Below, in pieces: positions 6,649-60,149 of a stretch of 61,032 bases of DNA. The stretch lies in IMG/VR virus record IMGVR_UViG_3300032219_001145, positions 1 through 61,032 of that record. One strand, given 5' to 3'. The DNA comes from a virus. Its lineage: Duplodnaviria; Caudoviricetes. Below the pieces are notes generated by a model. The model was given only the letters and a program-made list of their open reading frames with translations. It did not search any database and was not told the DNA's origin. The position numbers were made by a program, and so were the translations under genes. How positions within the stretch are numbered: the first letter of the stretch is position 1; each line of letters opens with the position of its first letter.

Positions 6649-9600
6649 TTAGCTGTGAGCCTTGATGAAAGCCGTGTTCTTGTCGACCTCACCGCCTTTT
6701 GCGTATGGTACCGCGCCTTTCATCTCTGGCGTGATGTCGATGTAACGAACCGCTTCTTTTCCACCGCCCAAATGCTTCTCTTTGTAGCGATTGGCCAGTT
6801 GCTGTGCTTCCTGCAAGCTGTTGGCATTTTGGTTGACAATTTCTGTCGACCCATCAGCTCTTACGCCCAAAACGGTTGTGTCGGTAAAGTTCCCTCGTCC
6901 AACAATGTAGTCAACATAGGCGGGCGCGATGGGTTCAGTTTTAATTTGCGTTATGCCTGTTGCGGCATTGAACTTTTTGCCCTGCTTTACAAGGAACGCG
7001 GGGTAGATTTCATCATAGTATTTTTTCATACCCTCGCTGGCAACCTGAAGGTCATCGCCCTCCAGCCTTCTTACTTCAGCCAGGTCCGGCTCAATCTCAG
7101 GGTTAAATTCATTTCTACCTTCTTTAGCCATCATTTTTTTAGTGACTTCTCTTCCCACAATGCCTTCTAATTCTTTTGCGGAGTAGTCGCCTCGCAACAC
7201 GTTTGCACCGTTTTTTGAGATGACGTTGATGTAAAAACCCTTTTCTGTAGGCTCATAGCTAATGTTGTCCACTTTTTCGGCCATGTTATACCGCTGGGCC
7301 TGCTGCATGCCCGTGGTTAGTCCCACTCGCTCATAGCCATTGTCAGCGGCATACTTCAATGCGCGCTTGAGGGCCAGTTGATGCCATGTGTCTTTGAAAG
7401 GCGCGTCGGGAACGCCTTCGTTAGAACCTCTGCCAAGCCTATTTTGTTCTGTCTGCAACATATTGAGTCTGTTAGAAACACTGTTCCATTCATTAAGAAT
7501 GTCTCTTGGGGCGTCTTTGCCTTGACTTGTATAAGGTAATGCAAGTTCTTCAAGTTGCTTTTTTCTTTCCCCTAACTGCTGTCTTTCTGCAAGCAAATTA
7601 TCTAGTTTCTTTTGTTCCGCAAGTTGTCTTTCTGAAGTGTTATACCCCTTTTCCCGCCCCGCTTGATGCCAATCAGATTGAAGTTCTTCAATTAACAGCA
7701 TTTTCTTGCCATCAGCATCCACGCGGTCGTTAACTCGCATGTGGGCCAAAACATTGGGTTGGTTAAAATGGGATGACTTATATGTTTGTGATCTGATTTT
7801 TTTTCTTAACTCTAGTGCCGTGGCTTCCGCTTGATCTCGTAACTTTACAGAATCTCTGAGTTTTTGATAGAGCGCAACCGTGCCCGGAGTGCCGGGGTTT
7901 AACTCGCTTGCGGCCCTCCATTCCCCCATTAAATTAGTAGTTTGCCTCCTTAAATCCCCCGCAGCAATTTGAGCAGCATCTAATTCAGCTTCTCCGCGAA
8001 CAGGTGTAGTCAACAATATTTCACGGTAGTTCTTACCGCCTGGAAGTACGAGACGGGGGTTGTCGAATCTAGTTGGCGCAGGTTCAGGGACAACATATGC
8101 GGCATCCGCTTCACGGTCCCGTACGCTCTGCAGTTCTGTAAGCCTGTTAGACAGGGCAGGGTCGTATGTATCGAAGTCTATCCGCCTGTAAAGCGCCTGT
8201 ATCTCAGGTTCGTACTTGTCAAACACTGCCTTGCGCTTGGCAATGCCTGCAGGGTCTTCGACGACGTTACCGCCTAGCTGCACCTCTTTGACGTCAATCC
8301 GGTTGTTGGCTATGAAGTCCTGGACCTCTTGCCGCGTTACCTTGGGTTTCCCCTTTAAAAACTCGTCCAGCCCCATGGACGTTAACTCTTCTTTTTTCAC
8401 ATCAGAGGCCTTCATCAGGTCGTTCAGGAACGCGTTGCCTGGACCTTCTTTACGGGGCAAGTTCAAAGCTGCTTGCTCTGCCGCAGAGTAAAACCCCAAG
8501 TTAGATGCGGGAGCAGGGATCACTGCACGGCTTTGAGGCGAGACAGCGTACGACGCGCCGGGCGCGGAAAACTGTTGGTTGTACTGCTGGAAGTCCTTGG
8601 CCACGGCTGTGGCTGCCTTGCCTGTTTTTTCCGCGCCCTTGACAGCCGCGCGTGTTACGCCAGCAGGATTGATGAAGTTGGACAGGAGCTCGCCGGCGGT
8701 GTAGAAGCCCTTGGCGGTCAAGTCGGCAGGAGGTGCCTGGCGAATACCCGCCTGGGTCATCTTCTCCTTGATGAAGTCGCTGCCCCCGATGGGCTTCTCG
8801 GCGGTGTAGCCAAACGGGCGCATCAGCATTGTTGCCACATCCACCGGCGCACCCAGAATGTCATAGGGCAATTCCGTCGCGCCCTTGGCCATGTTGACGT
8901 ACGCGTCGCCGGAGTCTATGGCCTGGCTGACAGGCCCCTTCTTGCGGTTCAGTCCGGTGCTTGGGCGGGCCTTGGGCACGTAAAACTTGTCCAAAGATTC
9001 TTCGCCTTCTTCCGGGCTGCCTCCGGCGCGGTATTCAGGAGGCGGGGTCATGCCCTTTTCTGCCTTGGCTTTGCGCGCGTCCATCTGCTCACGGCCCATG
9101 ATGTACGGCTTGCCTTCAACCTTTTTGGTCTGGGCCTGCAGTGCCATGGCCCGCACGAGCTTCTCTAAATCTGCCTGGCTCGTGGTCCGTGATGCAAGGT
9201 CCACGCCCAGCTTGTTGTTGTGCACGTCCAGTTCGTAATCGTCACGCGGCTTGCCAATGCCAAACATGCTGAAGAACGACTCAGGGTTGCTTGTACGCTC
9301 ATGAACCTTGCCCAGGAACGCTGCCACATCTGGGCCAACCTTCTTTGACAGGGCGGCTGCGGCCAGCATGTGGCGGGCCGCGTCCCGCTGGTCGTCCTGG
9401 CCCAACTGATCCGGGAACATGCGCTCCGACACGTCGGCGGCATAGCTGCTTACGCTGAAAATGCCAGGCTCTTTGGCACCTTCAGCGTCCGACTTTTTTG
9501 CTTCACCACCTTCTTTAAAGCGGTTTTTGGTCAGCCGGTTCTTGGTCAGTGTTGGGCCTTCCAAGGTCGGCGCACCAAAGGTGTCAGCGGACAGACCTCT

Positions 9601-12078
9601 GGCTTGTTCCTGTGCCGACCTGATCTTCAGTTGGTAGATTCGGGCAAGCTCTTCCATCTGCGAACGGGCAGATTCCGTGTTCCGCGCTGCGGGGGCCCTG
9701 TCCTTCATTGCGCCCAGGTCACCCTTGGCCAAGTCCTCATACGCCAGCTGCATTGCCTTGTCCGCTTCCGCGCCGCCGCCCGAGGCGGACCTTGAGCGCT
9801 TGATGGACTGCCGTGTAGGCGAGGCCTTGCCTGCGCCACTGAGGTCGGCCAGCATTTTCTGCGCTGTGCCCACGGGGTCCGTGTTGATGACCTCTTCCGG
9901 CTCCTCATCCGACAGGGTTTCGGCGTTCTGCGCCATCAGGGCTTCAAGGTCTACGTCGCCGCCCTTGGCAAAGCCTCCGCGTGTTCCGCGATCCCCACCG
10001 CCTGATGCGTCGCGCGCGCCGCCGCCGGTGTCTCTGCCTCCAGTAGCCGCACCCCCGCCATACCCGCCGCCGCTTTGGCTGCCGCCGCGCTCTCCGCTAG
10101 GGGGCGGGCCGTCAGGACCAGGCCCATAGGCTTCATTTGAACGCAACTGACTTAGTACACGGCTAGGTTGCGCTTGCAAACTTCCCGAAGGTGCTCCAGC
10201 CTCAACATTCTTAGCGGTTGCATTTCTCTCGGCTACGGTGGATAAGTAGCTGCCGTATGTGTTAGCCAATGACCCAAGCGCTTTTAAAGGCATACCAAAA
10301 GGGGCCATCACAGGATAGTTTGACAGTGCTTTTCCTGCGTCCAGCATGGACCGCGCAAACCCCGGGCTCGGGTTAAACCCTTCTCCGGGCGCACCTTCAG
10401 GGGCAGTTTGCCTACCGCCTCCACCCCTATTCTCCGCGCCTCTTACAACCCAGTCGTTGCTTGGCGGGGTATATCCGCCGCTACTGGCTACATAGGTCTG
10501 GCCCGTCTTGGGGTTGTACCAAGTAACTGTTTCCATGCTGTTCACGCTGTTGGAAGGCGGCTTAAACCCAAAATCTCCGCCTACTTCGCCGCCCTTGGCA
10601 AAGCCAAAGGGCCCACTAATCGGGGCCATGCCTGGTGCAGTTATCCGGTTGCCCATGCGGTCCGTAAAGAATCCGGCGTTCTGTGCGCCACCCAACATAG
10701 TGGGCGACAAGTTGGGGTTCGAGCCCATGGTATTCATTGTGTTCATCGCGCCGTACATGGGCATGTCGGGCGAGCCAATGGCCGCGCTTCCTGGAGCAAG
10801 GCCCGTGGAGGTCTGCGGCGTCATGGCAAAGTAGTTGCTGGTCGCCGCGTTGACAGGACCCACTGCACCTATGCCACGGCTGGTGTAGCTGGGCATGGCA
10901 GGCATAGAGATGGGGATGTCCGCAGCAGATTGGCCGGCAGAACCTCCCATGCCAGGCAGCCTTATTTGGCCGGGCAAAACAGGCGGCATATACGAGGTGT
11001 TTTCAGGTGCTCTGCTAATAAACTCAGGCACTGCATTCCGAGCTCTTGGAGTTGGCGGAGTTGGAAGTGGAGGCGGAGCTATGGGCGTAAGTTGAGGCGG
11101 AGCCGCAGGAGGAGATTCGGTATACGGGGGCGGAACCGTTGGGGGTGCTGGCATTTGCTCCAACTGGTCTCTTGCCGAGGGAGGCGCAGGTGTTCCGATA
11201 ACGGGAACTGCAATCATTCTTTCGCGCGCTGCCGCTGCTTCCCGCTCCGCCTGTGCTCTGGCCGCTGCATCCGCCGCGTCTCTTTCCCTCTGTGCCTCTT
11301 GCGCTAGACGCGCCAGGTAAGACTCATACGCCCTGTCGTTCTGCTTGCCCAAGCTCCCTGAGCCTACCGTCCCAAAGTACGGGGAGTCGTACATATCCGC
11401 CGTACCGATTTGGCCAAACGGGTCACTGTTTTTCTCTATGTAAGCCCTGTACTCGGGGGACTCATAGTACGGGTTGTCCGCCGCTACTGTGGAAGGTAAA
11501 AAAGCAGGTTGGGCTTTTGCCCCACGTTGTCGGGCCTCCAGCTCCGCCCGATCAGCAGCTTGTTGCGGGGATATCGGACCGTTTAAAGGCGCAATTGTTG
11601 TAACTACATCCTTAGCAAACTGTTCGCCTCGGTCTAACGATGATGTTCCTGACGAAGAGGGGCTAAAGGCGTTTTCAATTTTTTTGACAACCTCGCCAAC
11701 AAAGCCCCCTTTAAATTCTGACAGGCCTGTAACAGGGTTGATGGTCCCAGAGCCGCCGTTCTCTTTTAAGAACCGCACTGACTCGGGTGACAGGTAGGCA
11801 AGGAGTTCATCGCCGCCCCGACCTGCGGCCGCCACCTGGTCGGCCAGCTCCATGATTTCTTCTTTGGTGTAGCCGTATGACTCGAAGTCCTTAATGATTG
11901 AGCGGGCTGCTTTGTCCTGTGGGTCTTCGCTGACCTCGCCGCCCTTGGCCATGAGACGGGTCATCTCGTCGTTGTACGCCTGACGTTGCTGCTCAAATGC
12001 GTCCAGTTCCATTTGCCGCGTGCTGGGATCGGCAAAGTTCTGAACAGCAGGCATGTCGTACTTAGATTTCTTCATCAT
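6649..12078 (-). CDS. Large modular (polyvalent-type) protein, 1809 aa, probably virion-internal
   Basis: Segments separated by [M/F/Y]xxGG motifs; contains GSGTINP module, Pro-rich linkers, an RH..HE..DxHNN domain and an EELQSDWHQ domain. Confidence 0.75.
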   Translation of the reverse strand: MMKKSKYDMPAVQNFADPSTRQMELDAFEQQRQAYNDEMTRLMAKGGEVSEDPQDKAARSIIKDFESYGYTKEEIMELADQVAAAGRGGDELLAYLSPESVRFLKENGGSGTINPVTGLSEFKGGFVGEVVKKIENAFSPSSSGTSSLDRGEQFAKDVVTTIAPLNGPISPQQAADRAELEARQRGAKAQPAFLPSTVAADNPYYESPEYRAYIEKNSDPFGQIGTADMYDSPYFGTVGSGSLGKQNDRAYESYLARLAQEAQRERDAADAAARAQAEREAAAARERMIAVPVIGTPAPPSARDQLEQMPAPPTVPPPYTESPPAAPPQLTPIAPPPLPTPPTPRARNAVPEFISRAPENTSYMPPVLPGQIRLPGMGGSAGQSAADIPISMPAMPSYTSRGIGAVGPVNAATSNYFAMTPQTSTGLAPGSAAIGSPDMPMYGAMNTMNTMGSNPNLSPTMLGGAQNAGFFTDRMGNRITAPGMAPISGPFGFAKGGEVGGDFGFKPPSNSVNSMETVTWYNPKTGQTYVASSGGYTPPSNDWVVRGAENRGGGGRQTAPEGAPGEGFNPSPGFARSMLDAGKALSNYPVMAPFGMPLKALGSLANTYGSYLSTVAERNATAKNVEAGAPSGSLQAQPSRVLSQLRSNEAYGPGPDGPPPSGERGGSQSGGGYGGGAATGGRDTGGGARDASGGGDRGTRGGFAKGGDVDLEALMAQNAETLSDEEPEEVINTDPVGTAQKMLADLSGAGKASPTRQSIKRSRSASGGGAEADKAMQLAYEDLAKGDLGAMKDRAPAARNTESARSQMEELARIYQLKIRSAQEQARGLSADTFGAPTLEGPTLTKNRLTKNRFKEGGEAKKSDAEGAKEPGIFSVSSYAADVSERMFPDQLGQDDQRDAARHMLAAAALSKKVGPDVAAFLGKVHERTSNPESFFSMFGIGKPRDDYELDVHNNKLGVDLASRTTSQADLEKLVRAMALQAQTKKVEGKPYIMGREQMDARKAKAEKGMTPPPEYRAGGSPEEGEESLDKFYVPKARPSTGLNRKKGPVSQAIDSGDAYVNMAKGATELPYDILGAPVDVATMLMRPFGYTAEKPIGGSDFIKEKMTQAGIRQAPPADLTAKGFYTAGELLSNFINPAGVTRAAVKGAEKTGKAATAVAKDFQQYNQQFSAPGASYAVSPQSRAVIPAPASNLGFYSAAEQAALNLPRKEGPGNAFLNDLMKASDVKKEELTSMGLDEFLKGKPKVTRQEVQDFIANNRIDVKEVQLGGNVVEDPAGIAKRKAVFDKYEPEIQALYRRIDFDTYDPALSNRLTELQSVRDREADAAYVVPEPAPTRFDNPRLVLPGGKNYREILLTTPVRGEAELDAAQIAAGDLRRQTTNLMGEWRAASELNPGTPGTVALYQKLRDSVKLRDQAEATALELRKKIRSQTYKSSHFNQPNVLAHMRVNDRVDADGKKMLLIEELQSDWHQAGREKGYNTSERQLAEQKKLDNLLAERQQLGERKKQLEELALPYTSQGKDAPRDILNEWNSVSNRLNMLQTEQNRLGRGSNEGVPDAPFKDTWHQLALKRALKYAADNGYERVGLTTGMQQAQRYNMAEKVDNISYEPTEKGFYINVISKNGANVLRGDYSAKELEGIVGREVTKKMMAKEGRNEFNPEIEPDLAEVRRLEGDDLQVASEGMKKYYDEIYPAFLVKQGKKFNAATGITQIKTEPIAPAYVDYIVGRGNFTDTTVLGVRADGSTEIVNQNANSLQEAQQLANRYKEKHLGGGKEAVRYIDITPEMKGAVPYAKGGEVDKNTAFIKAHS

Positions 12079-12117
12079 ATCGCCCCGGCCAAGGAAGTAG
12101 TTTGGACATTTTACGCG

Positions 12118-13575
12118 TCAATAGTACTCCGGCACAAGGTCCTTGGCGGATTCTTCTTCCACGTCATCTGTACCCAGGGTAATGAAGTTGCCGCGCCGAA
12201 AACGGTCCATGGCCATTGTTGTGCTGTCCACCATGTCGTCATTGTCGCCATGCGGGAAGGCCGCGCATTCCTCTACAAGCATCTCGGCCCATTCCGTATC
12301 CGGGGCCCAGACCATGCCAGCCTCAAATACAGGTGCTACTGCGTTGGCCCGCGCTACCTTGTCGGTGCCCGTGCGCCGCCCGCCAGGGGAGTACATCGTG
12401 ACCGGGATGTTCATTCTTCGCAGCTCCTGCTGGAGAGGAGTTCCTGTGGCCTTGGCCTCGATCAGCACGTTGTCCGGTTGCCAAAGGTCGTACTGTTCCT
12501 TGGCAATACGTTTGAGTTCCGGGAAGTCCCAGCGCCCGCGCTTGACGTCCAGCAGCATGATTGACGCGCCGGAATCCTCGCTCAGGTAGAACACGCCCCA
12601 GGTCGTGATGACAGAATAGTCAGCCGTCTCCTTTTTGGAATACGCCGTGTCCATGGACTGGATGATGTAGTTCACAATGGGCGGCTCGTCCTTTGGCCAG
12701 ACTTTCCACCACTCCCTTTTCAGGATGGCACCCTCGTCGTTCGTGGGCTGCTGCTGGTACATCGCGTTCCACTTCTGCACCGACAAAGAGGCTTTCACGC
12801 CTTCAAGCTCCTCCAACTTCCAGTAGCCCGGCCAAAGGGGGCGACCGCTTGGCAGGATGGCGGGGAACTCGATGACCTCCCACTGGTCCGCGTTGCGCGA
12901 TTTCTGCGCCTTGAGCAGCCGCGCCGTCAAGTCCTTGGTGCTCCAGCGCGTCATCACAATGACAATTGCACCACCTGGTTGCAAACGCGTGCGAGGGCCA
13001 GAGATGTACCACTCCCAGGCGTTGTCCAAAGCAAGCTCACTCATCGCATCCTGTTCCGAATGCGGGTCGTCAATGATCAAGACGTCCGCGCCACGGCCGG
13101 TCATTGCGCCGCCCACACCGACGGCAAAGTACTCCCCACCTTTGTTTGTGTCCCACCGGCCGGCGGCCTTCGAGTCCTGCTTCAAGATCACATCGGGGAA
13201 CACCTGCTTGTACGTGTCCATGTCCATTAGGTCACGGACTTTCCGGCCGAATCGAACGGCTAACTCGCTGTTGTGGGTCGCTTCAATGGCCTTGGTTCGC
13301 GGGTCTCTTCCCATCAGGTAGGCAGGGAGCAGATAGCTTGCAAATTCAGATTTTGTGTGCCGGGGAGGCATGTTGATGATCAAACGCTTAAGGGTGCCGT
13401 TGGCAATCCGGTCGAACGCCTTTGCCATGACCGTGTGGTGCTCTCCAAGGATCGCGCTGGGCCAGACGTAGCGGGCAAAGTCGATGAAGCTGGTCTGGGC
13501 ATTGCTTTGCGCACCAAGCTGCGCGAGCCGGTACTCGAGTCTCAGCCGTTCCGCGTCTACTTCTTCAGGGATCAT
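12118..13575 (-). CDS. terL: Terminase large subunit
   Basis: Walker A-like INMPPRHTKSE, Walker B LIIDDPH, coupling motif VMTRW, nuclease motifs SMDTAY and DDMVDS. Confidence 0.95.
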   Translation of the reverse strand: MIPEEVDAERLRLEYRLAQLGAQSNAQTSFIDFARYVWPSAILGEHHTVMAKAFDRIANGTLKRLIINMPPRHTKSEFASYLLPAYLMGRDPRTKAIEATHNSELAVRFGRKVRDLMDMDTYKQVFPDVILKQDSKAAGRWDTNKGGEYFAVGVGGAMTGRGADVLIIDDPHSEQDAMSELALDNAWEWYISGPRTRLQPGGAIVIVMTRWSTKDLTARLLKAQKSRNADQWEVIEFPAILPSGRPLWPGYWKLEELEGVKASLSVQKWNAMYQQQPTNDEGAILKREWWKVWPKDEPPIVNYIIQSMDTAYSKKETADYSVITTWGVFYLSEDSGASIMLLDVKRGRWDFPELKRIAKEQYDLWQPDNVLIEAKATGTPLQQELRRMNIPVTMYSPGGRRTGTDKVARANAVAPVFEAGMVWAPDTEWAEMLVEECAAFPHGDNDDMVDSTTMAMDRFRRGNFITLGTDDVEEESAKDLVPEYY

Positions 13576-13605
13576 GGAAGTCCGTTTCGTTTCAAATTTT
13601 TAAAT

Positions 13606-13634
13606 ATTTTGACACGAGTTGAGTTTGTTGACAA
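13606..13634 (-). promoter_or_regulatory. Sigma70-type promoter for the terL/morphogenesis operon
   Basis: TTGTCA-17 bp-CAAAAT with TGn extension, about 30 nt upstream of terL. Confidence 0.55.
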
Positions 13635-13664
13635 AGGGGGCCCTTTATTGCTGGGCCCGAAAAC

Positions 13665-13680
13665 TGTTTCACGTGAAACT
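13665..13680. promoter_or_regulatory. parS: parS-like ParB-binding palindrome
   Basis: TGTTTCACGTGAAACT, 15/16 match to the chromosomal parS consensus TGTTTCACGTGAAACA; intergenic. Confidence 0.75.
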
Positions 13681-13759
13681 GACCGTGTGAAAAAGGGCTA
13701 ATGCCCGCGCAGCTGGCGACCCGGCCCGTTTTTTGGGCCCCGGCACCCCGGGGTCGGCG

Positions 13760-14305
13760 GCCAGGCACCAGGGCGCGCGCACCAGGGCGACGCGGCCACC
13801 GGGCCACCAGGGCGCGCACCAGGTAACGCGGGCCACGGCCCCAGGTCGGCGGCCACCAGGTCGGCGGCCACCAGGTCGACGGCCACCAGGTCGGCGGCCA
13901 CCAGGTCGGCGGCCACCAGGGCGCGCACCAGGTAACGCGGACCACGGGCCCCGGCACCAGGTCGACGGGCCACCAGGTCGACGGCCACCAGGTCGGCGGG
14001 CCCCGGCACCAGGTCCAGGCACCGAGCCCCAGGGCGCGCGGACCATGGCCACCAGGGCGCGGCCGGCGAGCCCAGGCACCAGGTCGACGGGCCACGGGCC
14101 ACGGCCACCAGGTCGGCGAGCCCCGGCACCAGGCACCAGGTCGACGGGCCACCAGGGCGCGGATCGGGGCCTGGGCGGTGCGATACGCGGGCCACGGTTC
14201 AGGCGTCCGGTGGCCGGGGCCACGGGGCGGGCCCAGGCGGCCACCAGGTCGGCGGGTTACCCGGAAAACCCGGCGGGTTATATGCGCCGTCGGTGCGATA
14301 CCAGG
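13760..14305 (+). repeat. Non-coding, strand-oriented CACCAGG repeat array
   Basis: About 28 CCAGG versus 1 CCTGG on the + strand (manual count); core 15-bp tandem CCAGGTCGGCGGCCA at 13841-13920. Confidence 0.9.
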
Positions 14306-14308
14306 CGC

Positions 14309-14335: not shown

Positions 14336-14357
14336 GAGTTAAGGGAAACCGGCCAGG

Positions 14358-39287: not shown

Positions 39288-41375
39288 TTACCTCGCGGGG
39301 CCGTCATATTTTATTTGTAGCTGCTTGAAACCGGTCTTAGGGTTGAGCACAATGTACTCGCCTGGAGGCAAGGTCTTCCACACCGCAGGATCAGTAACCG
39401 TGCGCTGTTGGATACCCAACAGGTCACGCACCGCAGCCAACTCTTCGAGCTTTTTGGTTGCATCATTCCGAGCGGAAATACCCGTCCTTGCCTCGGCTTG
39501 AACGCTACGGACTTTTTTCTCAATACCCTCAAGTACGTTGTCCAAACTAATAATCTGATTGATGTAGGCGTTCTTGTTGGAAAACAGTCTGGGAGTCAGT
39601 TTCAACTCTCCCAAAATCTGCTGACGCTCCCCCTCTGCGAAACGAGGATTTTCCTGCAGTGTATTGACGACGCGATTGGTCATGCTCTCTATCATTGTTG
39701 TACTTTGTTGGAACTCTGGACCAATGTTTCCAGCCGCGCTCAACGGCACGTTGCGCGCTACGCCAGCCACCAGTACAGGCACAAAGCCCGTGCCTGTTGC
39801 AGCCAAGTCAAAGAAGGTCGACTTAGGTGCAGTGGTCGCAATCTGGAAGATTTCCGGTTTTGTGCCAGCCGCCGTTAAGCCCACAGGATTTGCCTTTAAG
39901 ACAGGCGGAGCCACGCCTCCCACAGTGGTCGTGGTGCTTGGTTTAGGAGCCTTGCCGCCCAGGGCCTCCCTAACAAAGTCAGGCAGCTCGTTGCGTTGAG
40001 TGCGAATTGACTTGAGACCTGTCTCTGGATCGGTAGATTCAATCACGGTGGGCTGCGTGTAGTCCGTGACCGCAGTCATAAACGCGTTGCGTTGCTCGGG
40101 TTCCAGTGACCCCGCTGCGTACAGCGGAGCAAATTGAATGAGGGTGTTCAAGATGTCGCCTTTATTGCCCGAGCCAAGAGGGCCCTTTTTAGCGGCTTCA
40201 GCAGCTTTTTCGGCGGCGGCAGCGGCTGCTCTAGCCTTGGCAGCGTCTACTACCCCTCTCGCTCTAATGTCAGCAGCGCTAATCCTTCCTTGGGCAGTAT
40301 TTATCTGATTCATCAGGTCGTTTTTACGTTTCTGCAAATCACTGTTCTGAGCGTTAACCTGGTCGATATCTTTCTCACCTTGTTGCAGTGCCAACGCCTT
40401 AAGCTGGCGGTCAATTTTGCCAATTTCGTCAATGCGCTTGCCCATGGCAGCGGGCAGTGTTCGGGTCGCCCCTGCAAGGCGCGACATAAAGCTGCCGCTT
40501 AAAGGACGGCCCGCATCATCGGTGTTTGCAGCAAAGCCAAAGGCCCGTTGTCCAAGATCAAAGAGCAACTGCGCTTCTGACGCTGCTTTGTCTGGGCCAA
40601 GCAGTTTGTTGTACTCAGGTAGGCGCGCTAACATGGCAGCCGACAAAGTAGGCGCTACAGTCGGTTGCTTGTTGAAAAGCTCCATTCCCGACCTCTTGGC
40701 TGCTGCCACAAGGTCAGGCGGGTACTGTACTAAATCAGCTTCAGCAGGAACGGCCTCGCCAGCAGGGACCACGCCGTCCTCATCAGACCCTGCTTGAAAA
40801 TTTTGGACGTACCCACCACGCGCCATGGCCATGGGAGGCATGTCACCTGGAGGCATTGCGGGCGGAGCGCCCGGTGGGCCAGGGGGAGGCATACCAGGAG
40901 CGCCGCCGCCCATGCTTGCCATCAAAGCGGCAATACCGCCTTGGTCAGGGGGTGGAGCCATGCCAGCATCAGGAGGCATTGGGGGCATGCCGGGAGGAGG
41001 CATACCAGGAGCGCCACCCATCATCGGGGGCTGTGGCCCTTGGGCCATGGGCTGTGATTGGGGAAGCGCGCCAATACCGCCACCGCCTTGCTGCGCCAGG
41101 ATAGGCTGCAGCATTGCCAGTACTTGCTCAGGTGTCTCGGTAGCCGCCTGGTAACCCACAAGGTCGGCCAACTCATCACGGCGCGCGTCAATAGAGCGCA
41201 TGTCACCCCGCAGGTTGTTCATCAAGATTTCAGGAGAGCCGGGACGACGCTCCATCATCATTTCAGGGTCTTCACCGCCCTCGTCGTCGCCTTCATCGTC
41301 CATGAGGTCCATGAGCCCTTGCATGATTCCCATGTTTTCGATGTCATCGTCTTCGCTCATCATTTTTTTGTTCAT
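39288..41375 (-). CDS. Internal virion/ejection-type protein (695 aa)
   Basis: Pro/Met-rich N-terminus, MARGG motif, coiled-coil. Confidence 0.6.
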   Translation of the reverse strand: MNKKMMSEDDDIENMGIMQGLMDLMDDEGDDEGGEDPEMMMERRPGSPEILMNNLRGDMRSIDARRDELADLVGYQAATETPEQVLAMLQPILAQQGGGGIGALPQSQPMAQGPQPPMMGGAPGMPPPGMPPMPPDAGMAPPPDQGGIAALMASMGGGAPGMPPPGPPGAPPAMPPGDMPPMAMARGGYVQNFQAGSDEDGVVPAGEAVPAEADLVQYPPDLVAAAKRSGMELFNKQPTVAPTLSAAMLARLPEYNKLLGPDKAASEAQLLFDLGQRAFGFAANTDDAGRPLSGSFMSRLAGATRTLPAAMGKRIDEIGKIDRQLKALALQQGEKDIDQVNAQNSDLQKRKNDLMNQINTAQGRISAADIRARGVVDAAKARAAAAAAEKAAEAAKKGPLGSGNKGDILNTLIQFAPLYAAGSLEPEQRNAFMTAVTDYTQPTVIESTDPETGLKSIRTQRNELPDFVREALGGKAPKPSTTTTVGGVAPPVLKANPVGLTAAGTKPEIFQIATTAPKSTFFDLAATGTGFVPVLVAGVARNVPLSAAGNIGPEFQQSTTMIESMTNRVVNTLQENPRFAEGERQQILGELKLTPRLFSNKNAYINQIISLDNVLEGIEKKVRSVQAEARTGISARNDATKKLEELAAVRDLLGIQQRTVTDPAVWKTLPPGEYIVLNPKTGFKQLQIKYDGPAR

Positions 41376-43340: not shown

Positions 43341-45659
43341 TTATTTCCCCTTAACGGCTCCGCCTTCGAGCTTCTTCATTAACTTGTACATGCGAGCTGC
43401 GCCCTTGCGACGGCTGCCGCCTCCGGCGTTGCGCACAGCCTTGGCCGTAAACACGAACTCGCCGTCTGACAGCATCGCGGGGATGTCATCCGAAGTGCCA
43501 GTGCCAGGGCCGTTGATTGGGCCTTGACGGCGGGGGAAGTCGGTCATCTTGGCGTCACCGCCCTTGGCCATGCGACGGGGTTGACCATCAGGACCATAGA
43601 TAAGCGGCACGCCATACAGGCCCGCTACGTTGTAAGGTTGCGCCACGCCGCCAGGACGGTTTGTTATGCCGGTCGGTATGACGTTGCCCGGTTGGCCAAT
43701 GGGAATTGAGCCGTATGACGGGGTGGGGACAATTGGACTGGCTGGTGCCGAAGGCCGGGTGTAGCTGCCAAGGCCCCCGCTGAACAACTGGGGGTTATCC
43801 CTTATGTAGTCATTGCCCGTGTAATTGCGGTTGAACGCAGGGTTTTGGTTGACAGGTTCGCTATCCATGGCACCCGCGAGGTACGCAACCCCAGTTCCTA
43901 CCGCTGCCAGTGGGCCGTATTTGGTGAAGATACCTGCGTCCGCTGCCAGACCAGGACGGCTGGGCGAAAGGTACTCGTTGTACAGGTTCTTGGTGCCGGA
44001 AATCGCTCTGTCAAGGTATGACGGAGGTTGATAGCCCGGAGGTGGGGTATTTGGGATCGGAGTTTTACTGCCCAGGTCCGTCTGGGAATAGTCAGGCGGG
44101 AAGACTCCCTGGCCCGGAGGTGGAGTATTCGGGAATGGAAGTTGTGTGCCCGGAGGTGGAGTATTCGGGAACGGGAATTGTGTGCCCGGAGGTGGAGTAT
44201 TTGGTATCGGAGTTAGCTCGCCCAAATACGGAGCCCTTGGATTTGCCATACCAGGTACGCTGTTAGCAGCGTACCCCCCACGGGCGTCAGGAGGTAAGTT
44301 AGAGCCCCCACTGGCCACGTTATACCCGGCCTCTGGAGCTGCGTTAGGAGCCAGCTCCAGAGCACCAGCGTAATTAGCGGGCTGCACTATGTCCGGCCCT
44401 GCGCCAGGGGGCAGCTCCAAAGCAGTACGGTTTACCAGGTCCGTTGCATCGGCGTATGGGTCACCCGCCCCAGCAGCCCGTAGCATGTTCTGTGCAGTGG
44501 CGTCTGCTGGGACAGGCCGGCCACCTGCTAACTCAATGTCAGAGGGCCCGTCCAACTTCACAGCGCCCTCAGCGGTATTCTGAAGTCCTCGCATCGCCCC
44601 TGCTGATACGCCCGAGATCAGGCCCATTCTCAAAGCGTCTTGCTCGCTCATGCCCCCTAGCCTGCCGATACCCGCGCCAATTAAACCGGTTGTCAAGCCT
44701 GTGTTCAATGCACCTCCGGCTACGCCGGGCAAATAACCGCTAAGGCCTTTCAACGGGCTCCCAAGGCCCCCAAAGTCACCGCCACCGCCAATGTAGCCCA
44801 TTGCACCTGAGATCAGAGCGTCTTTGACATCGCCCCCGCCCAAGAGGGAAGACCCTGCGCTGGCAAGACCATATATCGCTGGAGCGCTTAATGACATGCC
44901 GAAGCCTGCTGCCGCCGGTCCGAGGACCGATGCCAAAGCAATAGTAGTCATAATGCGCCCGACAGGACTCTTAAGCACGTCTTTGGTGACGGTTACAACG
45001 CTTTTGACGGCGTCTTTGACACCGCCCACGACGTCCTCAAGAATGTTGCCGCCCTTGAATTCGGGTAAACCCGTAGCAGGGTTGATCGTGCCGGAACCGC
45101 CACGGCGCTTGAGCATCGCGGCTTCTTGGGGGGTAATGTGGGCAAGGATGCTGTCCCCGCCGCGCCCTTTACTGGCGAGGTACTGGCCGACATCGGCCAA
45201 GCCGCCGGAGGCCATGCCTATAGGTTGCAGGCCCTCAACCACGGGGCTCATGTCCATGGGCTCTTGCGCGCCAGCGCCCTGCATCTGCCGCATTTCCTGC
45301 AGCACCGCGAGCATCGCGCCAATAAACTCGGGGTCGTACTCTGCCGGCATGTCCCCCTCATCAAGGGCATCGGCTTCAATCATCTTCTGGAGCAAGTTTT
45401 TGTAGTCGCCAGGGTTCTGGCTGACATATGTAAAAACCTGGATGAGCACGTCAAGCTGCGCAGGCGTGAGCTGAAGGTCACCAATGTTCTGGCGAATGGC
45501 CTCTTTTAAGGCAGCATCCTCTCCGGGGCGGGCCATGCCGAGCGCTGTCATCGCGGCATCGTAAGAGTCCGCACTGGTGACGGTTGGTTGTTGCTGTTGG
45601 GCTTGTTCGCCCTCCATGCCCATGCCTTGAGGCAAGGCCATGATTCCTTCAGTTGCCAT
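43341..45659 (-). CDS. Internal virion/ejection-type protein with GSGTINP module and C-terminal GPGTGTSD domain
   Basis: GRGGDSILAH..GSGTINPATGLPEF, Gly-rich hydrophobic segments, GPGTGTSDDIPAMLSDGEFV. Confidence 0.7.
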   Translation of the reverse strand: MATEGIMALPQGMGMEGEQAQQQQPTVTSADSYDAAMTALGMARPGEDAALKEAIRQNIGDLQLTPAQLDVLIQVFTYVSQNPGDYKNLLQKMIEADALDEGDMPAEYDPEFIGAMLAVLQEMRQMQGAGAQEPMDMSPVVEGLQPIGMASGGLADVGQYLASKGRGGDSILAHITPQEAAMLKRRGGSGTINPATGLPEFKGGNILEDVVGGVKDAVKSVVTVTKDVLKSPVGRIMTTIALASVLGPAAAGFGMSLSAPAIYGLASAGSSLLGGGDVKDALISGAMGYIGGGGDFGGLGSPLKGLSGYLPGVAGGALNTGLTTGLIGAGIGRLGGMSEQDALRMGLISGVSAGAMRGLQNTAEGAVKLDGPSDIELAGGRPVPADATAQNMLRAAGAGDPYADATDLVNRTALELPPGAGPDIVQPANYAGALELAPNAAPEAGYNVASGGSNLPPDARGGYAANSVPGMANPRAPYLGELTPIPNTPPPGTQFPFPNTPPPGTQLPFPNTPPPGQGVFPPDYSQTDLGSKTPIPNTPPPGYQPPSYLDRAISGTKNLYNEYLSPSRPGLAADAGIFTKYGPLAAVGTGVAYLAGAMDSEPVNQNPAFNRNYTGNDYIRDNPQLFSGGLGSYTRPSAPASPIVPTPSYGSIPIGQPGNVIPTGITNRPGGVAQPYNVAGLYGVPLIYGPDGQPRRMAKGGDAKMTDFPRRQGPINGPGTGTSDDIPAMLSDGEFVFTAKAVRNAGGGSRRKGAARMYKLMKKLEGGAVKGK
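44035..44212 (-). repeat. 36-bp coding tandem repeat (PNTPPPG)
   Basis: CCCGGAGGTGGAGTATT at 44113, 44149 and 44185, plus a variant at 44035. Confidence 0.85.
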
Positions 45660-48889: not shown

Positions 48890-49113
48890 TCTCGGTACCC
48901 CCCGCCTGCGGCCCTGTACTTCTTGGCTACCAACTGTGCTTTTCTCGCGGACCACTGGCCCGCGCCTGTGCCCTGAGTAGCGGCAGATTTGACCTGGCTC
49001 ACGATCCGCTTGCGCAGCTCGGGCTTGGTATAGTTGCCGGCGGCATTGACACTGCCCCCTTTTTTAAGGGCGGCAGCTTTAGGCCTGGCAGGGTTTTTGG
49101 CCGGCTTCTTCAT
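48886..49113 (-). CDS. Basic protein, DUF5872-like N-terminal half
   Basis: NYTKPELRKRI..GQWSARKAQLVAKKY..GGGY. Confidence 0.7.
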   Translation of the reverse strand: MKKPAKNPARPKAAALKKGGSVNAAGNYTKPELRKRIVSQVKSAATQGTGAGQWSARKAQLVAKKYRAAGGGYRD

Positions 49114-54000: not shown

Positions 54001-54997
54001 AGAGCTTCTTGACAATGCCCATGCCGCCGTCCGTTTGGATCGAGCCGGTGGTCGTGCTGCTGGAGTCAGTCGTGCTGTCCACGGTCAACGCGCCGGTCAG
54101 CGTCTGATTACCACCTGCGGTGATGTTGCCGGCGATGAACAGGTTGCGGGGGCGGGTAGCGCCGCTGGCACCAATGTCGTAGGTGTTGTCGGTGAAGATC
54201 AGGTTGCTGGTGATCGTGCTGTTGATGGTCAGCGTGTCAGCGGAGGAGTCACCGACCGTCACGTTGCCGTTCAAATTCACGCCGCCCGTGAGCGTCAGCG
54301 TGCCGCCAACGGACAAGTTACCGCCCACGGTGGCAGCGCCGGCCAGATACAGGTTGCGGGGTCGCGTGGCCCCTGATGCCCCGATATCGTAGGTGTTGTC
54401 AGTGAAAATCAGGTTGCTGCCAATCGTGCCAGGCACAGTGATCAAGTCACCAGAAGCGTTGCCCAGAGCAACAGTGCCGTCCAGGGTGGTTGCACCAGAG
54501 GCGTTGAGCGTGGTGAACGCACCGGTGGAGGCGGAAGCTGCGCCAATGGGCGTGCCATCAATTGCGCCGCCATTGATGTCGACAAAGTCAAACATCTGAA
54601 TGACGTTGGTGCCGTCCACATACAGGTGTGCTTTGCGTCCATTGGTCACGGTAATGCCCGTGCCTGCGGAGGTCTTCACGGTAATGCTTTGACCGCCCGT
54701 GGTGTTGTTCTGAACAACGTACTGCTTCTCGATGGTCGGAACTATCAGCTCACGGGTGGCCGTCAGGCTGCCCGAAGACGTAGCGTTAAGGACCAAGGCC
54801 CGCGCTGTCTGTAGAGCAACGGTGTTGGTCAGGCTAATAGTCAGGTTGGCGTCTGTTGTAAAGACTGGATTGCCAAACCCCGTGATAGCCTGCTCAATGG
54901 CCGTGCCAATGTTGTCGTTGGTTGTAGTGCCCCAGGTGCCTGACTGCTCTCCAGTGCCAATCAGCTCAAATTTAAGGTCTGAATAGGTGCTTGCCAT
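51071..54997 (-). CDS. Tail fibre with 14-aa beta-solenoid repeats and C-terminal S74 intramolecular chaperone
   Basis: Dozens of NTAVGYQAxxxNTT repeats; TSDQRIKKNI...GFIAQE...LVKAIQEL. Confidence 0.88.
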   Translation of the reverse strand: MASTYSDLKFELIGTGEQSGTWGTTTNDNIGTAIEQAITGFGNPVFTTDANLTISLTNTVALQTARALVLNATSSGSLTATRELIVPTIEKQYVVQNNTTGGQSITVKTSAGTGITVTNGRKAHLYVDGTNVIQMFDFVDINGGAIDGTPIGAASASTGAFTTLNASGATTLDGTVALGNASGDLITVPGTIGSNLIFTDNTYDIGASGATRPRNLYLAGAATVGGNLSVGGTLTLTGGVNLNGNVTVGDSSADTLTINSTITSNLIFTDNTYDIGASGATRPRNLFIAGNITAGGNQTLTGALTVDSTTDSSSTTTGSIQTDGGMGIVKKLYVGLDANIYGLTVGRGAGADSTSTTVGNLALAANTTGSSNSAFGQRALQANTTGIYNTAVGTTAMVTNTTGTTNSAFGREALVLNTSGSGNTAIGTDTLRSNTTAGNNVAVGYQAAYSNTTGANNVAVGNDALRSNTTASGNTAVGYQAAYANTTGTSLVAVGYQALDSNTTGSNNTAIGLSALQANTTASDNTAVGYSAGGSNTTGSSNSAFGSIALASNTTGLQNSAFGSVGANVGALYFNTTGSQNSAFGNGASGANTTGSNNTAVGHTALLSNTTGSGNTAVGREALYSNTTPNNLTAVGYTALTANTTGDSNVAVGWRAAYSNTTGSSNVALGTQALNSNTTASNNTAVGYQAGYTNTTGTANAALGAYALLSNTTGSNHSAFGLESQRNTTTANDNSSFGYQAMLTNTTGGSNVAMGSNALRSNTTASNNTAVGTQALYTNSTGTSNTALGYVALNGNTTASRNTAVGQGAGQNNTTGHVTAVGAFVLQTNTTGTGNTGVGGNDEAASGALQANTTGSYNIAVGTGALAQNTTASNNTAVGYQAGYSGTTAAGGAAVGYQALYTNTVQTGGAALGYRAGYLYNPSVATESSGSVFIGYNTGSATTTGYNNTFVGGQSGLANTTGTSNTALGGYALGSNTTASSNTAVGYQAKYTNSTGTSNVALGYQAGYSGTTGNYNTALGAEAGKGITTGYGTVAVGYAALISNTTDLNVAVGFQSGYTNTTGSNMAALGYQALFANTTGNNNTAIGYAALQKNTTGTNNTALGYIAMYNKTTGDNNTSLGMNSAASLTTGGNNTFVGTSAGQDGASLTTGSNNIYVGYAAQASNAASSYEYVIGVNVAGKGNNTGFINPNGGGVYQGNNSASWSTTSDQRIKKNIVDVESGLDKILALRPVEFDYKENDKHEIGFIAQEYQQVLPDQVITHAANEAEKQWVDEDGRVFGINQNLVPYLVKAIQELKAEFDAYKSTHP

Positions 54998-57456: not shown

Positions 57457-58122
57457 TCATACCCCCAGGTCCGGTACAAACTGCACGCTGGCGGTGTCTC
57501 GGTCTTCCATCGCCGCGCGAAGGAAATCCTCTTCGTAAATAGACTTCAAGGCCGCAACTCGGTCAGCAGCAAACTTGAGTGCCAGGTAGTACGCCAGGCC
57601 CGACGCCAAGCAGGGCAAAAACCTAAAGTTGACGTCGGAAGTGTTGGTGTACGCGCCGGCGTCTTGGATGCGACGAATGCGGTAGTACACAAAGGTGTAG
57701 TTCTGGTCAGCTGCGGGGTAGAAATACACCTTGGGAGTATTGGTGCGCTCCACATAAAACTGCGCAGGACGGGCCTGCGTGGTCTTGTCAGGCACGTTAA
57801 GGTAGTCTTCACGGCTGATGCGCTCGATGTAGACGTCCGTGTTGATGCCCTGGTTGTTTTGGCGAATAATTGCCTCTAACACATTGACCACGTCGGTCGG
57901 CAACGAAATGCTGCTGGTTCCCTGCACTAGGGCAAAAGTAGCCTGCTCAATGGTCCACAAATTTAACCCGCGATTGGCCCAATCAAGAAACAACAGGTTG
58001 AGCGAGCGACGTGCCGACGTGAGTTGATACCCAGCCGTCGGCCGCATGCCGCAGCGCTCAAAAGACTCTTCGATTAAGTCATCAATCGACAGGTCAAATG
58101 TGGTGGTGTTGGAGGTGGTCAT
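57457..58122 (-). CDS. Head completion/adaptor-like protein
   Basis: IEESFERCG..ARRSLNL..WANRGLNLW..GLAYYLA. Confidence 0.7.
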   Translation of the reverse strand: MTTSNTTTFDLSIDDLIEESFERCGMRPTAGYQLTSARRSLNLLFLDWANRGLNLWTIEQATFALVQGTSSISLPTDVVNVLEAIIRQNNQGINTDVYIERISREDYLNVPDKTTQARPAQFYVERTNTPKVYFYPAADQNYTFVYYRIRRIQDAGAYTNTSDVNFRFLPCLASGLAYYLALKFAADRVAALKSIYEEDFLRAAMEDRDTASVQFVPDLGV

Positions 58123-58787
58123 TTGCTGTACAAGTTGTCAAATGTTGCTTGCGCATCCATGTACGAGTCATCCTGCTCCGCGCAATGTATCCACTGACTG
58201 GGCCTGAAATCAGGTGCACCTTCCCCTGTTTGCCAAAACGCAGGGCTTGTGACCCTGACGCGGTTGTTTGGCAACGCCACAATATTCCCCGTCCACTTGC
58301 CTGCATCAGTCAAAATCAAAACATGACTTTGCTTGTGCTGCGCAGGGCAATCGGCTACCTCGCTCTCTGCGTAATCCACGGTGAACAAGTACCTGCCGGT
58401 GTGAAATTCACCGTCAATCTTGCACAGCCAGGGGCTGGGGCTGGTCCGGGCAAACTTTATCACCGTGTGATGGTGCGACGGGCAGTCCCAAGGCTGCGCC
58501 AGATGTGTGGGCATGCGATCCGGCCACTCCTCCAGTGGGATGTCCCCCACCAGCGCTGTGATCGGCATGCGTGCCCACATAGCCCCTCCATGCACGTTCT
58601 CAGAACCGTCTACTTGGCTCTCACACCCGGTAAACACCACCTGAAAACTCAAGCAACGATCCGGCATGACGTTGACCGCAATAACATTTGCGTGCAAGTA
58701 CTCGCCATGGTACTTCTGGTGCATGTGGGTAAACTCACGTCTAACCCAGCATTTGAAGTACGGAATGTTGCTGATGAGGTATGCCAT
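58119..58787 (-). CDS. Conserved His/Cys/Trp-rich hypothetical protein
   Basis: GGAMWARMPITA, QPWDC, YLFTVDY, QHKQSH, ALPNNR. Confidence 0.75.
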   Translation of the reverse strand: MAYLISNIPYFKCWVRREFTHMHQKYHGEYLHANVIAVNVMPDRCLSFQVVFTGCESQVDGSENVHGGAMWARMPITALVGDIPLEEWPDRMPTHLAQPWDCPSHHHTVIKFARTSPSPWLCKIDGEFHTGRYLFTVDYAESEVADCPAQHKQSHVLILTDAGKWTGNIVALPNNRVRVTSPAFWQTGEGAPDFRPSQWIHCAEQDDSYMDAQATFDNLYSK

Positions 58788-59098
58788 TACTTAGCGCGTT
58801 TACCGCCCGCCATCGTGCCCTTGGACATTTTCTTGGCCGCGCCGCCCGCAGCATAGCCTTTGGACATCATGCCGCCAGCGGCATAGCCCTTGGTCATCAT
58901 GCCTCCGCCCATTTTGCCAATAGGCTTGCCCATGGCCATGCGCTTGTGCTCGTTGACGTTGCCTTTGTTGGCCATGCCGCCTTTAGCCATCATAGGAACG
59001 CCTGTAGAGGTGCTCGTTGAAGAAATCATCTTGTTTGCAGGGCCGCTTTCAACAGCGCCACCGCCGCGCGAAGCGGCTCCCATTCCACGTCCGGCCAT
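58787..59098 (-). CDS. Met/Gly/Lys-rich peptide with repeated xxGG motifs
   Basis: MAKGG, YAAGG twice, MAGG; AGGAG RBS. Confidence 0.7.
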   Translation of the reverse strand: MAGRGMGAASRGGGAVESGPANKMISSTSTSTGVPMMAKGGMANKGNVNEHKRMAMGKPIGKMGGGMMTKGYAAGGMMSKGYAAGGAAKKMSKGTMAGGKRAK

Positions 59099-59099: not shown

Positions 59100-59324
59100 T
59101 CAAACTCCTTTTTTCATTGCGCGGCCTTTAACGTCGGCCGTTTTACGTTTAACAGCGCGACCCATTTTGTCGCCCATGTCAGAATCTTTCATCATCTTGC
59201 CGCCAGGCATCTTGTGCATGCCTACCGCGCCGCCTTTTTTCATTTTGCCAATGCCATCGGCCGCAAAAGCAGGCACAGATTTGCCGCCTTTTTTGACCAT
59301 CTTTAGTTTCGAGGTTGCCATCAT
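59100..59324 (-). CDS. Met/Lys-rich peptide
   Basis: VPAFAADGIGKMKKGGAV; AGGAG RBS. Confidence 0.7.
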   Translation of the reverse strand: MMATSKLKMVKKGGKSVPAFAADGIGKMKKGGAVGMHKMPGGKMMKDSDMGDKMGRAVKRKTADVKGRAMKKGV

Positions 59325-59570: not shown

Positions 59571-60149
59571 TTAGTACAGCTTTCCTTTTGTTCTGCCCCG
59601 TATGGCTATTCCATCTCCGCGCCTTGCTGCTTCAGAGAGCTTGACTGATCCGCCCTTCTTAAATTCGCGAGGGGACACGTCATCAAAGGGGCTACTTTCC
59701 GATTTTTTTTCTGACTTAAACAGGGGAGGGTCTTCTTTAGTTGCTGACGATGCGGGGCTGTCTTTTTTGGACAGAAACTTATTCGCTGCGCTTAAGGCAC
59801 GCCCAACAGGCATGGCTGCAATTGCAGCCTTTCCCGCAGTCATTAAGGCATCCGTGGAAGGTGTATCACCCAATTTTGCGCGCGCATCCCGAAACCCTTT
59901 AGCTGTATCGCTTTCACGATATTTATCCAGCAAACCTTTCTCGCTGGCTTGCGATTTAGGGTACGTAGCGCCTTGAGTAAGTTTTGTTTCGCCTTGAGTC
60001 CTGCTCATGCTCGGCATCTTGTCAATCCGTTTTTGCTCATCGTCCGCAGTGACTGTGCCGTATTTTTTGCCGTTGAACGTAAACGTCTTTTTGCCGTCGG
60101 CGCGAGCTTCTTTAAATGCTTCCTGAAAGGGAGATGGTTTTTTAGCCAT
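59571..60149 (-). CDS. Basic hypothetical protein (192 aa)
   Basis: FQEAFKEARADGKKTFTFNGKKY N-terminal motif; FKKGG and RGDGIAIRG at C-terminus. Confidence 0.7.
   Translation of the reverse strand: MAKKPSPFQEAFKEARADGKKTFTFNGKKYGTVTADDEQKRIDKMPSMSRTQGETKLTQGATYPKSQASEKGLLDKYRESDTAKGFRDARAKLGDTPSTDALMTAGKAAIAAMPVGRALSAANKFLSKKDSPASSATKEDPPLFKSEKKSESSPFDDVSPREFKKGGSVKLSEAARRGDGIAIRGRTKGKLY

Follow-up and report, generated by a model that had tools for sequence, protein, structure and literature searches.

The window analyzed here is the whole of the virus record IMGVR_UViG_3300032219_001145 (Caudoviricetes), 61,032 bases whose ends are direct terminal repeats and in which nearly all genes lie on the minus strand. 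We examined a short Gly-Gly peptide, Phi-A/K-x-G-G-x-V/A with Phi being Met, Phe, or Tyr, which recurs in proteins encoded between positions 6649 and 60149. The original prediction, made from the sequence, had named 15 such peptides as a tag shared by a class of probable internal proteins. All 15 were present in the genes to which it had assigned them, their coordinates were checked, and every copy is on the minus strand. Six are in an 1809-residue mosaic giant protein (6649..12078) encoded between the terminase and portal genes. In this protein, MAKGGEV (11932..11952; residue 43) closes a 42-residue N-terminal leader at a place where BLAST segment ends cluster; FAKGGEV (10582..10602; residue 493) sits at a module joint; FAKGGDV (9952..9972; residue 703) opens a conserved core (residues 704-870) and coincides with 23 BLAST segment starts; FKEGGEA (9499..9519; residue 854) is the joint preceding a DUF6973 module (residues 874-976); and YRAGGSP (9013..9033; residue 1016), a weaker match with Pro at +3, is the joint following it. 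The sixth copy, YAKGGEV with the 11-residue tail DKNTAFIKAHS (6652..6705; residue 1792), makes up the C-terminal cassette.

The remaining copies are distributed over two large ejection-type proteins and a set of small proteins. The 777-residue protein (43341-45674) contains MASGGLA (45195..45215; residue 154) immediately before a second kind of module, described below, and MAKGGDA at residue 702, which begins a tape-measure-like C-terminal module with a GPGTGTSDDIPAMLSDGEFV core, two helices, and a LEGGAV end (43344..43571). The 695-residue protein (39288-41375) contains MARGGYV (40806..40826; residue 184). Among the small proteins, LKKGGSV (49048..49068; residue 21) stands between a leader and a small basic domain in an 80-residue protein (48886-49128); MAKGGMA (residue 37), YAAGGMM (residue 72), and YAAGGAA (residue 82) fall within 58835..58990 in a 103-residue Lys/Met/Gly-rich protein (58787-59098); MKKGGAV (59223..59243; residue 28) is in a 74-residue protein of the same composition (59100-59324); and FKKGGSV (59643..59663; residue 163) is followed by a 23-residue basic tail in a 192-residue protein (59571-60149). 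The copies thus start anywhere from residue 21 to residue 1792, internal and C-terminal sites included. Similar but weaker peptides are found in a helicase (LRKGGEV), a DUF7227 protein (YRAGGHN), an acetyltransferase (LKQGGLS), and the fibre (YSAGGSN).

We compared the frequency of the peptide with 300 within-protein shuffles of 79 proteins from the window (19,239 residues). The loose pattern [MFY]xxGG was mildly enriched, with 28 occurrences against 16.3 expected (standard deviation 3.9) and 1 of 300 shuffles as high. The more specific [MFYL][AKR][KRSEA]GG was found 18 times against 2.1 expected, and [MFY][AKR][KRSEA]GGx[VA] 12 times against 0.22, with none of the 300 shuffles reaching either count; both of these patterns were composed post hoc from the hits, and their enrichment figures therefore flatter the motif. 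The original prediction had proposed enrichment by gene class across related phages as a check, and we made this comparison in 147 related loci, 67 around relatives of the 777-residue protein and 80 around portal relatives, whose unique sequences formed 40 ortholog groups. The pattern [MFY][AKR]xGGx[VAIL] was confined to seven of them: the giant family (39 of 47 sequences), the 777-residue (59 of 59) and 695-residue (29 of 34) families, and the families of the 103-residue (22 of 23), 74-residue (17 of 19), 80-residue (9 of 24), and 145-residue (2 of 22) proteins. None of the other 33 groups contained it, including the major capsid protein (0 of 33), portal (0 of 71), large terminase (0 of 31), scaffold-like (0 of 56), 616-residue (0 of 57), and fibre (0 of 37) groups as well as the adaptors, and it was also missing from the other two of the four large ejection-type proteins, those of 1114 (0 of 25) and 651 residues (0 of 52). 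On these two counts, 12 copies against 0.22 expected and 7 of 40 groups, the proposal of a class-restricted tag held up.

This restriction did not depend on a chosen pattern. When we tallied every isolated Gly-Gly, a preference for Met or Phe at -3, Ala at -2, Lys at -1, and Ala or Val at +3 appeared only in the motif families, and the same residue preferences were not seen in 943 Gly-Gly contexts of other families. In DSL-LC04, the nearest named record and itself a metagenomic assembly (PMC10611076), the motif was kept at orthologous places though the flanks had diverged: FAMGGIA and FANGGIA in the ortholog of the 777-residue protein, MANGGIV in that of the 695-residue protein, two copies in a 75-residue Lys/Met/Gly-rich protein, and three near the start of the terminase-portal protein. 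Among relatives the motif codons differed at synonymous sites, which points to selection on the peptide and not on the DNA; we had considered a DNA-level recombination signal and dropped it on this ground. The flanks of the motif were low in hydrophobic residues (fraction 0.224 vs 0.299; 6 of 5000 random sets were equally low). In the ortholog alignment of the 777-residue family, conservation was high throughout and the motif did not stand out. Taken as a whole, these comparisons support the view that selection maintains the motif as a label specific to one class, a subset of the late proteins. The position of their genes and their homologies suggest that the labelled proteins are located inside the virion.

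The giant protein allowed us to ask where the motif falls relative to module borders. The protein encoded between terminase and portal is extremely mosaic, whereas the adjacent portal is 65-96% identical among relatives. When the 1809-residue protein was aligned with its relatives, 70 of 192 BLAST segment ends fell no more than 12 residues from a motif; the expected number was 15.9, and none of 2000 simulations exceeded 29. Its conserved core comprises residues 704-870, present in 36 of 40 relatives, and residues 1020-1190, present in about 26 of 40. Residues 1200-1809 (window 6652-8480) were found in none of the 40 close relatives. They share 29-32% identity with proteins of Dolichospermum phage Dfl-JY45, Pelagibacter phage HTVC028P, and a Manatee Spring phage, and residues 1426-1605 are matched by PHROG 7348 ("endolysin"). 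The giant proteins of relatives carry DUF6973 (17 of 40), LPD23 (7 of 40), PcfJ (4 of 40), and DUF6884 (2 of 40), and in the window's own protein Pfam found only DUF6973. This domain (window 9151-9459) is a cassette between two motifs, and its position varies within the giant proteins of relatives. Sequence searches of the PDB gave no match for the DUF6973 piece, chance hits only for the N terminus, and none for residues 1017-1809.

The ends of the giant proteins follow a comparable layout. Where the terminase-portal interval is complete, 20 of 26 giant proteins have their first motif at residues 15-45. At the other end, 12 of 45 giant proteins finish with a motif followed by a conserved tail, of which there are three classes (4, 11, or 15 residues). 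YAKGGEV-DKNTAFIKAHS in the window, with its tail at 6652-6684, is of the 11-residue class, and the same cassette closes unrelated giant proteins in relatives. The three tail classes (..KHAA or ..SHAA; DKNxxFIKAH[AS]; and N/D-xSTAxxQLxxLxAA) are attached to unrelated bodies (loci L112, L113, L123, L124, L131, L122, and L089), and their last residues are always small (-AA, -HA, or -HS, for example). Endings of this kind are reminiscent of degradation or docking tags. Exchange beside the motif is also seen in smaller carriers; some relatives of the 777-residue protein have an insert of about 220 residues between two motifs, and in the 80-residue family the domain following the motif is exchanged among relatives.

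Two modules are shared beyond single proteins. One, of about 45 residues (GRGGD..LA..P.E..GGSGTINPxTGLxEF), is common to the 1809-residue protein (11701-11829) and the 777-residue protein (45030-45215), and in both it is bracketed by Gly-Gly peptides, in the form GRGGD..ILAH..NPxTGLxEF-KGG. The giant protein's copy (11701..11829, minus strand; residues 84-126) is the second in the window. Methylophilales and uncultured phage records gave matches to this module as well; it is not covered by any Pfam or PHROG family, and Pfam at E ≤ 10 returned nothing useful for the small proteins and modules.

The other module is the C-terminal unit of the 777-residue protein. Residues 702-777 consist of MAKGGDA, 14 residues, a GPGTGTSDDIPAMLSDGEFVFT core, two helices, and LEGGAV, and this region matches tape measure PHROGs (E 3e-8 to 1e-4) and two tape measure chains in the PDB, 8zdo from mycobacteriophage Douge (E 4e-4) and 8rk3 from JBD30 (E 5e-4). 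The homology of this C-terminal unit to the tape measure unit is established by these sequence matches. The module of about 60 residues matches 1345 phage records, mostly annotated as tape measure, and it occurs in 5180 proteins of one database and in 9449 clusters at 50% identity in another. Giant proteins that contain the module four or five times repeat it as motif, module, motif. We tallied this layout in 163 module copies from 150 cluster representatives. A Gly-Gly lay 9-40 residues upstream in 137 of the 163, with Ala at -2 in 110 of these and Tyr, Phe, Leu, Met, or Ala at -3 in 120, and a second Gly-Gly motif followed the module in 37 of the 40 copies with enough downstream sequence. 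The same order can be read directly in the sequences of cultured phages: FATGG (from residue 733), GEFVFT, and YATGG (from residue 778) in lambda gpH; FASGG, DEFMT, and HATGG in JBD30 gp46; and RAEGGMMY and GTEVVT in T5 pb2. Cultured Pelagibacter, Vibrio, and Arthrobacter phages are further carriers of the motif. When profiles of the two hairpin modules were compared (..SDDIPAMLSDGEFV.. with ..GDSILAHITPQEAAM..), motif aligned with motif only weakly (E 0.027, probability 1.8%), and a relation between the GRGGD module and the tape-measure module is only suggestive.

We used AlphaFold2 to model the 777-residue protein's module. The model, of low confidence (mean predicted local distance difference test score (pLDDT) 61.4), consists of a hairpin and two helices with the motif undocked, and the motif region is disordered (pLDDT about 50). 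Because this region is disordered in the model and its flanks are hydrophilic, the motif is probably accessible, in agreement with the earlier suggestion that it sits in linkers or near termini. Prediction of a three-copy complex of the C-terminal module gave 0.01, 0.44, and 0.08 in separate runs, a median of 0.08 against a mark of 0.42, and provides no evidence either way.

The genes around the motif carriers are ordered as follows. In transcription order, the large terminase gene (12118-13575) comes first, followed by the giant gene (6649-12078) and the portal gene (4297-6639), then genes for an 84-residue protein, a GroES-like protein (3424-3933), a 306-residue coiled-coil scaffold-like protein, conserved proteins of 159 and 193 residues, and the major capsid protein (478-1383); terminase, portal, and capsid were assigned with Pfam and PHROGs. 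Across the record ends come the small proteins (60968 down to 58787) and two SU10/Pam1-type adaptors. Next are the fibre (51071-54997), a holin, an M15 endolysin, and the 616-residue structural protein, after which the four large ejection-type proteins of 777, 651, 695, and 1114 residues occupy, in that order, 45674 down to 35939. In the closest GenBank record, the orthologs of these four are labelled "tape measure", hypothetical, hypothetical, and "DNA transfer", respectively. Among 78 window proteins searched with Pfam and PHROGs, none was assigned to a tail tube, sheath, or tape measure family, and because no tail tube or sheath family was found, the phage is presumably podovirus-like. When 12.7 kb of the window was searched against phage records at the nucleotide level, no match was found.

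Several features of the window are recorded here as separate observations. The GroES-like gene (within 2491-3933, minus strand; Cpn10, E 4e-9) encodes a 60-residue N-terminal extension and lies directly upstream of the 306-residue coiled-coil gene, with the capsid gene further on; this layout matches abundant virioplankton contigs described as carrying GroES, a kinesin-like protein, and a head protein (PMC5649160). An 84-residue DUF6321 protein (60159-60413) adjoins the motif-bearing small proteins and is another small portable basic domain; in PHROGs, DUF6321 is the C-terminal end of far longer proteins (for example, positions 437-525 of 525 and 859-928 of 928). Downstream of the terminase, the G+C fraction is 0.61-0.64 in 12001-18000 compared with 0.50-0.59 elsewhere, and the DUF932 and DUF7227 genes are located there. 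The longest open reading frames of a UvrD-like helicase and the DNA polymerase share 298 bases (28087-28384), and the real start of the polymerase is probably downstream of its longest-frame start.

The reading that we favor, tentatively and at somewhat short of even odds, is that the motif signals processing or a junction in a cargo polyprotein. On this account, Phi-A/K-x-G-G-x-V/A would be a selected short linear signal that marks the borders of exchangeable modules and of short leaders and tails, and its carriers (the mosaic giant protein, two ejection-type proteins, and small basic proteins) would be packed in the particle and expelled through the tail. The giant protein would in effect be a cargo polyprotein whose leaders, tails, and modules are separated at or beside the motif during or after assembly. 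Trimming of lambda and T5 tape measure proteins at a homologous motif-module unit would be the model, and the cutting agent would be either a host factor or self-processing triggered by assembly, with no recognizable encoded protease. The first motif at residues 15-45 and the conserved short tails after the last one look like a propeptide layout, and short leaders and tails set off by the motif, together with a motif at every joint whatever the neighbors, would fit processing.

Precedents for such processing come from long-tailed phages. The tape measure proteins of lambda and T5 are cleaved near the C terminus in tail assembly (PMC12617516, PMC10038345), and Linares et al. report that T5 pb2 is cut after R1127 (PMC10038345). 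The pb2 sequence at this position is R|AEGGMMY; that is, the reported cut falls immediately before A-E-G-G, inside a copy of the motif. For lambda gpH, we calculated that a cut before ATGG at residue 734 would yield fragments of 79.8 and 12.5 kDa, and the corresponding report gives about 78 kDa for gpH* and a fragment of about 14 kDa from the glycine-rich region (PMC12617516). As the lambda cut was mapped by mass only, these values are compatible with a cut before ATGG, no more. The JBD30 paper proposes a cut by analogy only, and a marine phage proteomics paper contains no terminus analysis.

A number of points weigh against processing. The phage and its relatives are all uncultured, and cleavage of their proteins is unproven. 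The T5 site is itself disputed; an older assignment puts the cut after V1148 ± 1, which falls within the GTEVV strand of the T5 module, and R1127 is also a tryptic site, according to a later reply (PMC11937520). For these two reasons the T5 precedent is real but not secure. Moreover, the T5 residue before the cut is Arg and not Met, Phe, or Tyr, and the cut may reflect an exposed linker beside a bound motif. The crAss001 paper nowhere mentions cleavage, and gp45 is modelled there as one chain. Cutting at all copies would leave the 103-residue protein as peptides of about 10-35 residues, and a motif four residues from a C terminus looks more like a docking tag. We also looked for a protease. 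None of the 78 window proteins has a protease domain in Pfam or PHROGs, where "protease" hits are limited to the capsid portion of families in which capsid and protease are fused, and the original prediction had correctly noted that no standard prohead protease is recognizable. No peptidase domain was found at E ≤ 1 in six pieces of the 1809-residue protein or at E ≤ 1e-4 in the giant proteins of 40 relatives. The 159-residue protein (2007-2486), considered as a hidden protease or receptor, had no informative fold match: its AlphaFold2 model (pLDDT 67.9) gave no Foldseek match in the PDB at E ≤ 0.001, a best VIA-align Z of 4.1 that reflected mostly one long helix, and only unnamed viral clusters in the ESM Atlas. 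The missing gene is not decisive, because no protease has been assigned to the cleavage of lambda gpH and T5 pb2 either (PMC10038345, PMC12617516, PMC11937520).

The 159-residue protein is unusually conserved (identity 60-95%, with 61 columns invariant among 31 sequences), its N terminus is disordered and rich in Arg and Pro, and the neighboring 193-residue protein (1395-1976) gave weak cement-protein leads only (0.81-0.83). Two other proposals of the original prediction fared less well than its description of the motif. It had offered the 58119-58787 protein as a partner; relatives contain seven matching open reading frames (six unique sequences) and DSL-LC04 has no gene-order counterpart, and because few relatives have it and this counterpart is missing, it is unlikely to be a core partner. 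It had also read the motif as an address label for head loading. Since the motif flanks a module of tape measure proteins, which are sited in tails, a head-only address is weakened, and two ejection-type proteins lack the motif.

A close rival, possible although we rate it as rather doubtful, is that the peptide is never cut and instead serves in docking or assembly. In that case an exposed peptide, possibly forming a tight Gly-Gly hairpin, would bind a shared partner (the hairpin module next to it, further chains with the motif, or part of the DNA exit channel) and so anchor cargo for ordered exit. The class restriction to 7 of 40 groups, the absence of a protease gene, and the placement of motifs at N termini and at extreme C termini with tails of 4-15 residues would all suit this function, as would tandem copies about 10 residues apart in small basic proteins and motifs that closely flank the hairpin-helix module on either side. 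The T5 site after Arg would also make sense if the cut fell just outside a bound motif. Giant genes that are split in relatives speak in both directions: at locus L146 the motif is kept in all three pieces, and at locus L116 one of two pieces is without it. Against docking, no partner emerged, in the AlphaFold2 model the cis motif does not dock on its own module, and it is hard to name a receptor that podovirus heads, siphovirus tails, and crass-like phages would have in common. The recurrence at joints could also be explained by a passive flexible Gly-Gly joint that tolerates module exchange and has no specific reader, its copies being inherited with cassettes and their linkers. The location at recombination joints and the disordered, hydrophilic flanks agree with this, but the bulky residue at -3, Ala at -2, and Val, Ala, or Ile at +3 are conserved while the flanks diverge, the same seven residues appear beside unrelated modules in very distant phages, and the codons are not conserved, hence no DNA-level recombination signal; we regard a passive joint as improbable.

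We give even less credence, a very slim chance, to a chaperonin-binding mimic, in which the motif would stand in for the mobile loop of GroES and bring host GroEL to large cargo and to tape measure proteins. We know of no GroES gene in lambda, T5, or JBD30, all of which carry the motif. The idea arises from the phage's own GroES-like protein, which has TKGGIFIPE in its Cpn10 domain, and from T5, which reads GGMMY; the GroES mobile loop has a conserved Gly followed by three small hydrophobic residues, and "selective host involvement" in T5 tail protein cleavage, reported in 1973, is cited among chaperonin-essential cases (PMC5649160). In the window, however, the residues after Gly-Gly are mostly charged or polar (GGEV, GGDV, GGSV) and the three-hydrophobic rule is unmet: they read EV-S, EV-G, DV-D, EA-K, SV-N, DA-K, and similar, with GGIFI only in the GroES-like protein. 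The chaperonin dependence of T5 tail assembly can also be indirect. Other candidates were dropped: internal translation starts at the motif Met, because Phe and Tyr are equally common; signal peptidase I or rhomboid sites, because the window motifs have no preceding hydrophobic segment; and LexA-like self-cleavage, because Ser is not kept in lambda.

Comparison with known systems bears on the processing reading as well. Phage T4 has a capsid targeting sequence on the internal proteins IPI-III and Alt, which is removed by the prohead protease gp21; this signal is strictly N-terminal, is cut after Leu/Ile-x-Glu, and needs the phage protease. As in T4, a short peptide here is common to otherwise unrelated proteins that are probably packed or injected, and an N-terminal leader may be combined with a processing site. 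Unlike in T4, the motif has another consensus, is carried by tail proteins, and is also internal and C-terminal, so that it is not confined to the N-terminal 10-20 residues; nor did the 78 proteins include a phage prohead protease. Gly-Gly-X polyprotein sites are cut by the adenovirus protease and by pS273R of African swine fever virus, and double-glycine leaders are cut by C39 peptidases. These sites, which lie on leaders or on core or internal virion proteins, resemble ours in that Gly-Gly is preceded at a short distance by a hydrophobic residue, and they differ in that our hydrophobic residue is one position further from Gly-Gly and no clan CE or C39 peptidase was found. No C39 or ATP-binding cassette (ABC) transporter domain was detected by Pfam in window proteins; with no C39 peptidase-ABC transporter and a mostly internal motif, C39 export does not apply. 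The reported T5 cut is before Ala and not after Gly-Gly as in those systems.

The giant family itself can provisionally be placed with the polyvalent proteins because its relatives carry DUF6973, LPD23, PcfJ, and DUF6884, and it is likewise a giant, highly mosaic, multi-module protein of the packaging/head region. For polyvalent proteins, processing has been predicted and ascribed to internal zincin-like or assemblin-like peptidase domains by Iyer et al. (2017) (PMC5512222). In contrast, we found no zincin-like MPTase or assemblin-like peptidase in the window's giant protein or in 40 relatives. The word "linker" is absent from the main text of that paper, and the motif itself was not searched for there; limited literature searches found no description of the motif in print.

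A close parallel is tape measure maturation in lambda (gpH to gpH* and gpHC) and T5 (pb2 to pb2* and pb2C), where Phi-A-x-G-G-x-Phi precedes, and often also follows, a homologous hairpin-helix module with the shared core ..D.IPA.LS.GEFV... In the present phage the order is MAKGG...GEFVFT...LEGG, and residues 702-777 of the 777-residue protein have the same arrangement, with Phi-A-x-G-G-x-Phi N-terminal to a ..GE(F/V)V.. hairpin near the C terminus. In contrast to lambda and T5, the window has no recognizable tail tube or tape measure gene and has SU10/Pam1 podovirus-type adaptors; the module ends an ejection-type protein encoded in a block of four such large genes and not the length-determining protein of a long tail, and most motif copies here are on other proteins and have no module beside them.

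These results make the motif a concrete candidate site for the maturation cuts of lambda gpH and T5 pb2. If it is a processing or docking code, it would permit sequence-only recognition of the injected proteome in uncultured phages, define the module borders of giant cargo and tape measure proteins, explain their evolution by cassette exchange, and provide a handle to load foreign proteins into phage particles; with the module present in at least 9449 protein clusters, such a rule would have a wide reach. A bolder extension, which we consider unlikely, is that Phi-A-x-G-G-x-Phi serves throughout the Caudoviricetes as an "exit-path code", with a conserved mechanism of self-processing or self-association reading it and no dedicated protease gene required. 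If true, it would define what enters the DNA exit path and is expelled, from tape measure, podovirus ejection, and polyvalent proteins to small basic cargo; it would allow phages to swap ready-made cargo modules freely, and it would account for the 50-year-old puzzle of lambda gpH and T5 pb2 cleavage.

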